Origin: a virus
Taxonomy: Duplodnaviria > Heunggongvirae > Uroviricota > Caudoviricetes > Herelleviridae
Virus record (IMG/VR): IMGVR_UViG_2974632988_000001
Location: 123,923-162,598 of that record
Reading direction: 5' to 3' (one strand)
DNA: 38,676 nt
Below, one piece after another: positions 18,954 to 20,814 of the stretch. The notes beneath the pieces are model-generated. The model was not told where the DNA came from. It searched no databases and saw nothing but the letters and a program-made list of their open reading frames with translations. Both the position numbers and the translations under genes were made by a program. Positions within the stretch are counted from its first letter, which is position 1; the number at the start of each line of letters is the position of its first letter.

Positions 18954-19622
18954 TTACTTAACATATTGGTATAAACCATAACCTGCACTTTGAATCGTTG
19001 GCTCGTGCATCTTGATTTGTCGTAATGTTTCGTGTGGATGGTTCATTTGGATTCCTGCATCATTTAAAGCTTTAATCAAGTCTTTAGATTTCATTGGTTC
19101 TACATGCTCTTTAAGAATTACTTTAGCAAATTGAGAAACAACTTTGTTGTCATTCATTGAACCTCTCATAAGTGTCTTTCTCATTTCTAACTTATCAGGC
19201 TCAAGACCAGCAGAAGGTTTTTCTTTAGGCTTGTCCACATTAAGAGGTAGGATGTCTGGTTGCTCAATTTCGTTACATAAGTTTGTAGGTTGCGTTGGTT
19301 CTGCAATTGTTATTCCTTCTTTTTTCATGTCAGCTACTATAGATTTTAGCTCGTCCATCATTTCTGGAATGATTTTTTTGAACTCTTCTCTTGCATTTCT
19401 ATTAGCTTCTTCTACCATTTCTTGTGGAACCATTGGTCTTTCGTAAACCTCTGTTACGAATTTATCTACTGTATCAGCTTGTTCGCTCATTCTATCGATT
19501 TCGTCTAGTTCTCTTAATCTATCTAAGTTCTTTACGTACTCTGTATATAAACGAGCGCGCTCCTCTTCGATATAATTCATCATTCTTTCTATAGCTTGTC
19601 TTTCTGTAAATGTTGATGTCAT
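18954..19622 (-). CDS. Rok-like nucleoid-associated protein / xenogeneic-silencer homologue (222 aa; N-terminal oligomerisation coil, C-terminal winged helix)
   Basis: Start reassigned to ATG 19622 (SD AAGGAG). FTERQAI...RLRELD and ILKEHVEPMKSKDL...EPTIQSAGYGLY resemble B. subtilis Rok (FNEREAL...KLRELD; TLKRHNAAIKSSEL...YPEVKKPYRGQY; Rok sequence recalled from memory). Confidence 0.7.
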   Translation of the reverse strand: MTSTFTERQAIERMMNYIEEERARLYTEYVKNLDRLRELDEIDRMSEQADTVDKFVTEVYERPMVPQEMVEEANRNAREEFKKIIPEMMDELKSIVADMKKEGITIAEPTQPTNLCNEIEQPDILPLNVDKPKEKPSAGLEPDKLEMRKTLMRGSMNDNKVVSQFAKVILKEHVEPMKSKDLIKALNDAGIQMNHPHETLRQIKMHEPTIQSAGYGLYQYVK

Positions 19623-19691: not shown

Positions 19692-19722
19692 AAAAAATAG
19701 ACACGATTATTTTTCGTGTCTA
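19692..19722 (-). terminator. Intrinsic terminator of the 3D-domain gene
   Basis: TAGACACGA-loop-TCGTGTCTA followed by TTTTTT on the minus strand. Confidence 0.8.
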
Positions 19723-19734
19723 CTTAATGGTCTA

Positions 19735-20349
19735 TTAATTTAGGATTGTAACTTGTACTGTTTTTCTTCCCCAGTCACTAGAAACCTTCTTGTTTGGCAT
19801 CAATACATCGATACGATTACCTTTGATTGCACCGCCTGTATCTCCTGCGATTGCTTCTCCATAACCTTCAACATAAATACGAGAACCAAGTGGAATTACT
19901 CTAGGGTCAACTGCAACCATTTTCATACTAGGGTTTGCTGATAAGTTATGTCCCATTGCTGTTTTAACTACTCCACCATATGTACCGCCATTCTCTGCTG
20001 GGTCTGCTGTATATGCAGTAGCAACAACTGTAAGTGTTTTACCTGATGGTTTTTGAACTACAGTTTCTTTCTTAGGTTCTGCTTGAACCGGAGCTTTCGT
20101 ATGTACGACTTCTTGTGTGTTACCTTTTAGTAAAGATAATAGATTAATATTTTGTTCTGCTGTTCCTGTGTAATTACCAATTCCATAGTTAGAAGCTAAT
20201 TGACTACGGTTAGAGAAACTATGGTCTTCTCCTTTTTGGTATAGGTAATCTACTACGCTTGTCTCACTAGCTTGTGCGCTGTGACCTCCTACAAACAAGA
20301 TTCCTGTACCGATTGCTAATGTTGTTACGATATTCCTTAATGTTTTCAT
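19735..20349 (-). CDS. Secreted 3D-domain (MltA-like lytic transglycosylase; YocH/Sps-like) protein with a DUF3597-like cell-wall-binding module
   Basis: Start at ATG 20349 (SD GAGGAG). Signal peptide MKTLRNIVTTLAIGTGILFVGGHSAQA; SVVDYL...SF.NR..LA..YGI.NYTGTAEQN..LL module; 3D motif VVATAYT...VAVDPRVIPLGS.IYVEGYGEAIAGDTGGAIKGNRIDV. Confidence 0.9.
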   Translation of the reverse strand: MKTLRNIVTTLAIGTGILFVGGHSAQASETSVVDYLYQKGEDHSFSNRSQLASNYGIGNYTGTAEQNINLLSLLKGNTQEVVHTKAPVQAEPKKETVVQKPSGKTLTVVATAYTADPAENGGTYGGVVKTAMGHNLSANPSMKMVAVDPRVIPLGSRIYVEGYGEAIAGDTGGAIKGNRIDVLMPNKKVSSDWGRKTVQVTILN

Positions 20350-20394
20350 TAATTCGTTCTCCTCTACATTATATTTGTATTGCTTATACTTCTT

Positions 20395-20403
20395 AATGTA
20401 ACA
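20395..20403 (-). promoter_or_regulatory. Possible extended -10 (TGTTACATT) of the 3D gene with a poor -35 (AATGAT)
   Basis: TGn-TACATT; weak -35, consistent with activator dependence. Confidence 0.4.
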
Positions 20404-20426
20404 CAAACATACAGGAAATCATTGGA

Positions 20427-20454
20427 TGTAAAGGAATTGTAATAGTATTGTAAT
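20427..20454. promoter_or_regulatory. Triple WalR (YycF) box
   Basis: TGTAAA-N5-TGTAAT-N5-TGTAAT on the + strand; matches the consensus TGTWAH-N5-TGTWAH twice over, directly upstream of a YocH-like gene. Confidence 0.75.
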
Positions 20455-20469
20455 AAACCGTTAGTAAAC

Positions 20470-20500
20470 AAAAAAGAAAGAAGCTATATATTATAGCTCC
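20470..20500 (-). terminator. Intrinsic terminator of the three-gene early operon
   Basis: GGAGCTATA-ata-TATAGCTTC followed by TTTCTTTTTT. Confidence 0.75.
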
Positions 20501-20814
20501 TTGTAACCTTGTTTTATAGGTGTTTTATCTGGGTTTGGTTGTTCACCGTCATACGCATAAAGTTTCCATCCGAACTCCTTATTAAAAGGTTTATGGATAT
20601 GAACTAAGAAAGAATATTTATCTACTTGTACGAACATGTACGCTACATCATTACTAACAGGTCTAAATAAATGTGTACGATTTTCGAACCATAATTTTTC
20701 AAACGGTAAATCTGTAAATACATCGTCTCTTAGGAAAACATAGAATGCTTCTAATTGTAGGCGTTCTTCTTCTTTGATTTTAAAATCCTGATAGTTATCT
20801 AATAGATTAGTCAT
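20491..20814 (-). CDS. Hypothetical protein (107 aa)
   Basis: ORF coupled by an 8-nt overlap to the upstream gene. Confidence 0.65.
   Translation of the reverse strand: MTNLLDNYQDFKIKEEERLQLEAFYVFLRDDVFTDLPFEKLWFENRTHLFRPVSNDVAYMFVQVDKYSFLVHIHKPFNKEFGWKLYAYDGEQPNPDKTPIKQGYKEL

Follow-up and report, generated by a model that had tools for sequence, protein, structure and literature searches.

Organization of the 3D-domain gene locus

The window analyzed herein, a stretch of 38,676 nucleotides corresponding to positions 123,923 to 162,598 of the IMG/VR record IMGVR_UViG_2974632988_000001, originates from a Bacillus myovirus with a genome of approximately 162.6 kb and is 95% identical to the phages Flapjack and Spock (Herelleviridae, Bastillevirinae, Bequatrovirus). 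The host of the phage belongs to the B. cereus group, and the phage is a virulent member of the Bastillevirinae, as an earlier note made from the sequence alone had supposed in calling it lytic.

The open reading frame and its translation placed a gene for a 204-amino-acid 3D-domain protein on the minus strand at 19735-20349 (ATG at 20349, stop at 19735), and direct reading of the sequence located a ribosome-binding site, GAGGAG, at 20359-20364 (-), 9 nt before the ATG. Terminator-like hairpins were observed on both sides of the gene on the same strand, one upstream at 20478-20502 and the other directly past the stop codon at 19695-19725, and both are annotated as intrinsic terminators at the corresponding places in phage Spock. 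These hairpins (20502-20478 and 19725-19695) bear out the previous description of a stand-alone gene. The upstream terminator insulates the unit from the preceding genes, and the 3D gene thus constitutes its own transcription unit within the tail-gene region, where in the related phages compared it is always found between the genes for the tail tube and those for the tail chaperone.

The gene directly downstream (18954-19622, -) encodes a Rok-type winged-helix protein (PF23159, E 2.5e-7) and is furnished with a promoter of its own, the near-consensus sigma-A sequence TTGACT-17-TATACT. A Rok-like neighbor, annotated as "putative repressor of ComK", also follows the 3D gene in the B. subtilis phages phiNIT1 and 278BB001, and phage Bastille has no Rok-like gene at the position next to its 3D gene.

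Properties of the encoded protein

The predicted product begins with a Sec-type signal peptide (residues 1-27), recognized by eye from K2, R5, a hydrophobic core and the AQA sequence at 25-27 that forms an AQA-SE junction. It continues with a three-helix N-domain resembling the C-terminal part of DUF3597 (residues 29-76), which was confidently modeled by AlphaFold (AF2), a low-complexity linker (residues 77-102) that is disordered in the model, and the 3D domain (residues 103-204), modeled as a beta-barrel over residues 103-203. The Pfam 3D family (PF06725) matched residues 144-204 with a score of 76.3 bits (cut-off 23.8; E 2e-21), and the YuiC structures 4WJT and 4WLK were matched by sequence with an E-value of 2e-13. 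The match to DUF3597 (PF12200) reached 20.2 bits (E 9e-4) against a Pfam cut-off of 29.8 and covered only the C-terminal third of the profile, although a precomputed DUF3597 match is present in many homologues. Of the domain composition previously proposed, the 3D domain was therefore firmly identified and the signal peptide was apparent on inspection, whereas the DUF3597-like portion fell below the Pfam cut-off.

The residues D148, D170 and D181 were invariant across an alignment of 34 sequences and aligned with those of YuiC. The AlphaFold model had a mean pLDDT of 73.6, with values of approximately 80-92 in the 3D domain, and a Foldseek search with it retrieved YuiC (4WLK and 4WJT, E 2e-5 to 6e-5) as well as MltA, expansins and PA4485, the modeled fold being a double-psi beta-barrel like that of YuiC and MltA. 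The product is accordingly predicted to be an exported peptidoglycan-cleaving enzyme of the 3D/YuiC type, that is, an MltA-like lytic transglycosylase.

Many phage records already include an annotation of this 3D-domain gene, frequently with an incorrect name. In GenBank and RefSeq, the related genes are designated L-alanyl-D-glutamate peptidase, portal protein, endolysin, peptidase or enterotoxin, none of which fits the 3D/YuiC fold, and a practical gain of the present assignment is the correction of this widespread misnaming.

Box array and promoter upstream of the 3D gene

Three half-sites matching the WalR consensus without a mismatch, TGTAAA-N5-TGTAAT-N5-TGTAAT, were confirmed on the plus strand at 20427-20454 with 11-bp phasing, exactly as the earlier note had reported. 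They constitute two overlapping perfect matches to TGTWAH-N5-TGTWAH (PMC4168254), a consensus that holds across Bacillus, Staphylococcus and Streptococcus, with sites on either strand (PMC4168254; PMC3472324). On the gene strand the array reads ATTACA-N5-ATTACA-N5-TTTACA and spans approximately -66 to -39 from the predicted start. The chance expectation of the triple pattern was 0.04 per window even with one mismatch allowed. In the whole 162.6-kb genome, the two-box consensus was matched only four times, two of these matches being the array itself, and the full array-promoter pattern occurred once; the boxes are therefore not a general promoter word of the phage. A general phage promoter motif was rejected also with respect to the element TGTGTTACATTA, which was not enriched in the window.

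This element, a conserved sigma-A extended -10 (20394-20405, -), lies 21 bases downstream of the array and comprises TRTG at 20405-20402, one base, and the hexamer TACATT at 20400-20395, from which a start near 20388 was predicted. The spacer between array and promoter (20406-20426, -) is fixed in length and free in sequence, and separates the proximal box from the -10 hexamer by 26 nt. No -35-like hexamer was found 17 bp upstream of the extended -10, and hence the "weak -35, extended -10" promoter previously proposed is retained in its extended -10 (TGTGTTACATTA, 20405-20394) and not in its -35. Boxes that end 26 nt before a conserved -10 hexamer lacking a -35 have the geometry expected of activation, relative to the predicted start.

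Two other assignments of these elements were considered and rejected. TTTACA does not serve as a -35, since no -10 is found 17-18 nt downstream of it in any lineage. The conserved TGTTACA is also not a fourth WalR half-site: it is out of phase with the boxes, and the B. subtilis phages have TGCTAAATT there. The last element is a -10 and not a fourth box, because the B. subtilis phages carry TGTGCTAAATT at this place.

A second, clade-specific sigma-A-like promoter, TTAAGA-17-TATAAT (20368-20396, -), is located between the conserved -10 and the ribosome-binding site and would give a very short leader. It is found in Spock and BigBertha-type phages and is absent from Bastille, Bcp1, phiNIT1 and others. 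The presence of this second candidate promoter nearer the gene was counted against control by WalR, as was the number of half-sites, three being an odd count for a dimer. As for transcripts, the RNA search yielded only soil metatranscriptome contigs, each with small parts of the stretch, and essentially no reads of the phage stretch were found in the four raw RNA runs checked.

Conservation of the box-promoter module among phages

The upstream regions were read in phages of the B. cereus group (Spock, BigBertha, Bastille, Bcp1, BM15 and TsarBomba), of B. subtilis (phiNIT1, 278BB001 and SBSphiJ3) and of B. megaterium (Moonbeam, the related f2b1, whose record names S. aureus as the host, and the IMG/VR locus L006), together with P59 (Cytobacillus), Bp8p-T (B. 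pumilus) and Yucatan (B. licheniformis). These phages share a common order consisting of a terminator, three DTWACA boxes with 11-bp phasing, 23 bases, and TG-n-TA(C/A/T)ATT, from which Bp8p-T deviates solely in a degenerate third box.

The 33 distinct modules collected from phages of the Bastillevirinae, which cover at least six host groups, all have three DTWACA boxes on the gene strand and no -35, and their extended -10 takes the form TRTG-n-TA(C/A/T)ATT. The spacer is identical in length in 33 of the 33 modules while its sequence diverges, and the bases between the boxes drift as well. Within the boxes, 98 of the 99 first bases are A, G or T, matching the H of TGTWAH on the other strand, and the remaining positions are invariant save for T or A at the W position, giving the phage consensus boxes ATTACA, TTTACA and GTWACA. 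Conservation of the boxes upstream of orthologues, which the earlier note had named as a check of its proposal, was thus found across the Bastillevirinae subfamily.

We also scanned IMG/VR with a pattern that contained no protein information, namely three TWACA words, a 23-nt gap and TGNTANANT. As many as 45 of the 50 matches lay directly before this 3D gene family, within 1 kb; one of the others was cut by a contig end and four were unrelated repeats.

A different, shortened arrangement in which the boxes abut the -10 is found in Wphvirus phages, and this was counted against control by WalR. In the Wphvirus phage Nigalana (L030, approximately 1800-1900, -), two boxes are followed directly by TGTTACATTA and then TATAAT, without the 23-nt spacer and without a separate third box. 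In Spounavirinae such as CampHawk, the 3D gene resides in an operon and has no boxes. The Rok target words TACTA and AACTA, which were sought within the spacers, are not conserved.

In TsarBomba (L031) and P59 (L040), the annotated start codons are situated upstream of or inside the box-promoter module, and the annotated coding sequences are therefore over-extended at their N-termini; in both phages a downstream ATG with a ribosome-binding site yields the usual signal peptide.

Host promoters with the same layout

Since no OmpR-type DNA-binding domain was found among the phage-encoded proteins, the regulator was sought in the host, and the host-side promoter comparison rests on a CwlO-type gene promoter from the B. 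cereus group. Two genomes of this group were found to contain one perfect triple array each, located before the gene of a 401-amino-acid secreted protein with a PcsB-type coiled coil (CC_PcsB) and an NlpC/P60 domain, which is the architecture of CwlO. On the gene strand this promoter reads ATTACA-N5-TTTACA-N5-GTAACA, 23 nt and TGGTATAAA, so that the phage and host promoters agree in box number, orientation, spacing and the extended -10. When one mismatch was allowed, triple arrays in the two genomes were weakly enriched (18-22 versus 10-19 in the control), and only arrays conserved between both genomes were therefore regarded as informative. A search of 185,579 species genomes for the pattern of the host CwlO-type module gave 69 matches; 57 of these are located in front of the CwlO-type gene in species of the B. 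cereus group and Ectobacillus, as are two more on truncated contigs. Phosphorylated WalR activates both cwlO and yocH in B. subtilis (PMC13525142; PMC7299342; PMC4478028), and by analogy with cwlO the CwlO-type gene of the B. cereus group is probably controlled by WalR as well.

A first scan of host genomes with a strict pattern found no 3D gene, and the CwlO-type promoters escaped it owing to the terminal A of their -10. Its matches did include modules upstream of envelope genes, namely those of PrsA-like lipoproteins, of a single NlpC/P60 hydrolase and of SLH proteins in clostridia. Host 3D genes were nevertheless enriched for arrays, with three phased half-sites (at most two mismatches allowed) in 25 of 86 upstream regions versus 1 of 86 coding controls. 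These arrays are forward in 24 of the 25 cases, whereas the phage array is reversed, and the phage promoter is for this reason nearer to the host CwlO-type promoter than to those of host 3D genes. Simple capture of the promoter together with a host 3D gene was accordingly rejected, and the view expressed in the earlier note that the phage had kept a host input is not supported in that form.

Proposed control of the 3D gene by host WalR

Taken together, we consider it probable, at roughly 0.6, that host WalR switches on the phage 3D wall-enzyme gene through a host-style promoter. From the directly observed sequence features, their conservation, their specificity for the 3D gene and an architecture identical to that of the host promoter, we infer WalR binding and activation, as well as the timing, enzyme activity and biological role outlined below. 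Several lines of evidence point to this reading: the triple array matches exactly and has no second copy in the phage genome; phages of six host groups share the module, the spacer being constant in length but divergent in sequence; 45 of the 50 IMG/VR pattern matches precede the 3D gene family; and 98 of the 99 boxes obey the H of TGTWAH. On the host side, the only perfect array in each of the two B. cereus-group genomes precedes the CwlO-type gene in the same layout, as do 57 of the 69 matches, cwlO and yocH are WalR-activated in B. subtilis (PMC13525142; PMC7299342), and host 3D genes are enriched for arrays (25/86 versus 1/86). The lack of an OmpR-type DNA-binding domain in the phage and the match of the protein fold and three Asp residues to YuiC also argue for it. 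The earlier idea of a 3D gene wired to WalR is hence upheld as to a stand-alone, exported YocH/YuiC-like gene with consensus boxes and an activator-type promoter, and is extended by the copied layout of the host CwlO-type promoter. As a caution from cyanophages, response-regulator boxes predicted in phages frequently do not stand up to experiment, EMSA included (PMC10976474).

In the mechanism that we propose, host sigma-A RNA polymerase would read the 3D gene from the extended -10 promoter without a -35, with the three phased half-sites at approximately -66 to -39 standing in for the latter. Phosphorylated host WalR would bind the half-sites and recruit the polymerase, as is thought to occur at the identically built host CwlO-type promoter. 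Expression would then start early, require no phage factors, be independent of the phage transcription programme and scale with the wall-growth state of the host. The 3D protein would leave the cell via Sec, hold the wall by its small N-domain and nick glycan strands, its most likely role being to prime or assist lysis in the manner of the Tgl enzyme of Kayvirus.

The half-sites might instead serve another host regulator. In B. subtilis, genes activated by PhoP carry the repeat TT[A/T/C]ACA on their coding strand, and Pho-regulon promoters of Bacillus have at least four such phased TT(A/T/C)ACA repeats on that strand, reaching the -35 to -20 region. The xTTACA boxes on the gene strand of the phage resemble this repeat, and they could be Pho boxes, or sites of another OmpR-family regulator of the host, at which PhoP and not WalR activates the gene, for example upon phosphate limitation. 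Cross-talk between PhoPR and WalRK has moreover been described at yocH (PMC13403408). However, only 27 of the 99 phage boxes have T at the first position, and G is the first base of the proximal box in 28 of the 33 modules. The phage has three boxes, none of which lies in the -35 to -20 region, in contrast to the four or more repeats of the Pho type, and the promoter of the host gene pstS, the classic member of the Pho regulon, differs likewise in having four phased TTxAxA boxes (TTTACA, TTTACA, TTAAAA and TTAATA) that reach to approximately 14 nt from the -10. Furthermore, the identical host module fronts an autolysin gene and no Pho gene. Judged by its sequence, the phage module is of the CwlO kind and not of the pstS kind, and activation by PhoP appears unlikely. 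A clean Pho-type example in the B. cereus group is provided by a pstS-type gene (PBP_like_2; L289:1602-2519, +) with its promoter at L289:1500-1600.

Extended -10 promoters of the TRTG type can function without a -35 in Gram-positive bacteria. The 3D gene could hence be driven by a constitutive early promoter for which the extended -10 is sufficient, the repeats being an inherited upstream element whose regulator is absent or lost, and the Kayvirus tgl promoter is indeed active in both E. coli and S. aureus with no added factors (PMC7150955). Against this explanation, the conservation seen in the 33 modules from several genera concerns the hexamers specifically and obeys the degenerate WalR rule at each position, while the other bases drift, and the -10 hexamer TACATT is weak. 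We therefore regard purely constitutive expression as improbable, to about the same degree as activation by PhoP.

WalR itself could also act in the opposite sense, either by repressing or delaying the gene or by being titrated, in its phosphorylated form, off host promoters by replicating phage DNA. WalR is both an activator and a repressor depending on the position of its site (PMC13525142), the boxes abut the -10 in Wphvirus phages, and each genome copy would offer three high-affinity half-sites that are multiplied by replication. In most of the phages, however, the array at -66 to -39 upstream of a promoter without a -35 occupies an activator position, and the same layout is shared by the host CwlO-type gene, whose counterpart cwlO is activated in B. 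subtilis; a negative or sink function is thus doubtful, and more so than the two preceding explanations.

Recognition of the repeats by a phage-encoded DNA-binding protein, such as the Rok-like winged-helix protein encoded directly downstream and in the same neighborhood in B. subtilis phages, seems the least probable of all, given that a single promoter in 162.6 kb carries the motif, that uninfected hosts have the same module in front of a core chromosomal gene, that Bastille retains the boxes without a Rok-like neighbor, and that the phage has no OmpR-type domain.

If the 3D gene is activated by host WalR as proposed, this would connect WalRK with the control of phage genes, for which no earlier example was found in the literature searched. 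WalRK is the sole essential two-component system in Bacillus, Staphylococcus and their relatives, and reports on wall growth. Such control would also explain why the 3D gene is insulated by terminators inside the late tail operon. As for the further consequences envisaged in the earlier note, waking dormant neighbors and tuning lysis to host physiology are speculation. In its fullest form, in which the subfamily would read WalRK as a growth-state sensor and the secreted 3D enzyme would free muropeptides that wake dormant or sporulated neighbors in an Rpf-like manner via PrkC, thereby enlarging the pool of infectable hosts, the idea is very unlikely.

Comparison with known systems

YocH carries a pair of LysM domains at its N-terminus, whereas the N-terminal module of the phage protein is a single small three-helix domain. 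Otherwise, the phage protein has the three Asp residues and the YuiC/MltA fold in common with YocH and YuiC, the 3D-domain "stationary phase survival" proteins of B. subtilis (4WJT, 4WLK and 4WLI); it is likewise predicted to be exported, and yocH is directly activated by WalR. The phage gene differs from these in residing in a virulent phage and in having reversed boxes, those of most host 3D genes being forward. The host CwlO-type promoter resembles that of the phage in its three DTWACA boxes (ATTACA, TTTACA and GTAACA), 11-bp phasing, 23-nt spacing and TRTG-type extended -10, but its gene encodes a D,L-endopeptidase, an enzyme of another class, and its -10 is TATAAA in place of the TACATT of the phage.

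The Tgl of Kayvirus is, like the 3D protein as characterized in silico, an additional muralytic enzyme with a signal peptide that is encoded by a virulent phage of the Herelleviridae (PMC7150955). It is related to the host WalR-regulon autolysins IsaA and SceD, is expressed from an early-type promoter by the host polymerase, and brings about lysis only after the membrane has been de-energized (PMC7150955). This precedent suggests, by analogy, that the 3D protein is an accessory lysis enzyme made early and secreted. The two systems nonetheless differ in enzyme family, Tgl being likened in that paper to IsaA and SceD and not to 3D-domain proteins, and in host genus; tgl is located near the lysis genes, whereas the 3D gene is situated outside a lysis module, between the genes for the tail tube and the tail chaperone, and no WalR boxes are described for tgl in PMC7150955.

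A lytic phage placing sites of a host OmpR/PhoB-family regulator before its own genes has been described for cyanophages (PMC10976474 and the P-SSM2 pstS work cited therein), and control of the 3D gene by WalR, if true, would be the Gram-positive counterpart of this use of host PhoBR. The systems differ in regulator (PhoB versus WalR), in signal (phosphate versus wall homeostasis) and in output (nutrient uptake versus wall hydrolysis), and the cyanophage link is backed by EMSA and expression data whereas that of the 3D gene comes from sequence comparison.

Further occurrences of WalR-type arrays

Geobacillus phage GR1 (L044), which encodes an integrase and is not classified in Herelleviridae, has a 3D gene with a perfect forward TGTAAT-N5-TGTAAT approximately 10 nt upstream of TTTACA-17-ATAAAT, and WalR-type boxes at phage 3D genes are hence not limited to the Bastillevirinae.

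In the B. cereus group, a second triple array with one mismatch was observed at L269:1627-1654, oriented in the opposite direction and 100 nt beyond the array of the CwlO-type promoter. It is followed approximately 24 nt on by TAGAAT, with no ORF of at least 50 amino acids after it on that strand within the locus, and this array could provide the CwlO-type gene with a second WalR site or serve as a small-RNA promoter. B. cereus-group genomes (L285:1567-2772, +; L008; L018) also encode a fusion of the CC_PcsB coiled coil to a 3D domain, a CwlO-like architecture in which 3D replaces NlpC/P60, and the forward triple array of this gene ends 10 nt before the -10.

A recurrent clostridial module (L196, L201, L208, L227, L254 and L256) consists of three DTWACA boxes, 3-4 nt, TTGACA, 17 nt and a TG-extended -10. 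In those cases in which an ORF comes after it, the product is often an SLH or other secreted protein (L181, L200, L215 and L233), and the module may represent a WalR-type promoter class of clostridia. In four species comprising Mesobacillus species and Bacillus dakarensis (L182, L183, L212 and L229), a module of the phage type, with three reversed boxes, 23 nt and TG-n-TAnAAT, precedes a SurA_N/PrsA-like lipoprotein gene. Finally, a 274-bp contig filed under Xenorhabdus santafensis (L301) contains a module of approximately 60 bases identical to the CwlO-type promoter of the B. cereus group, and is probably a contaminant.
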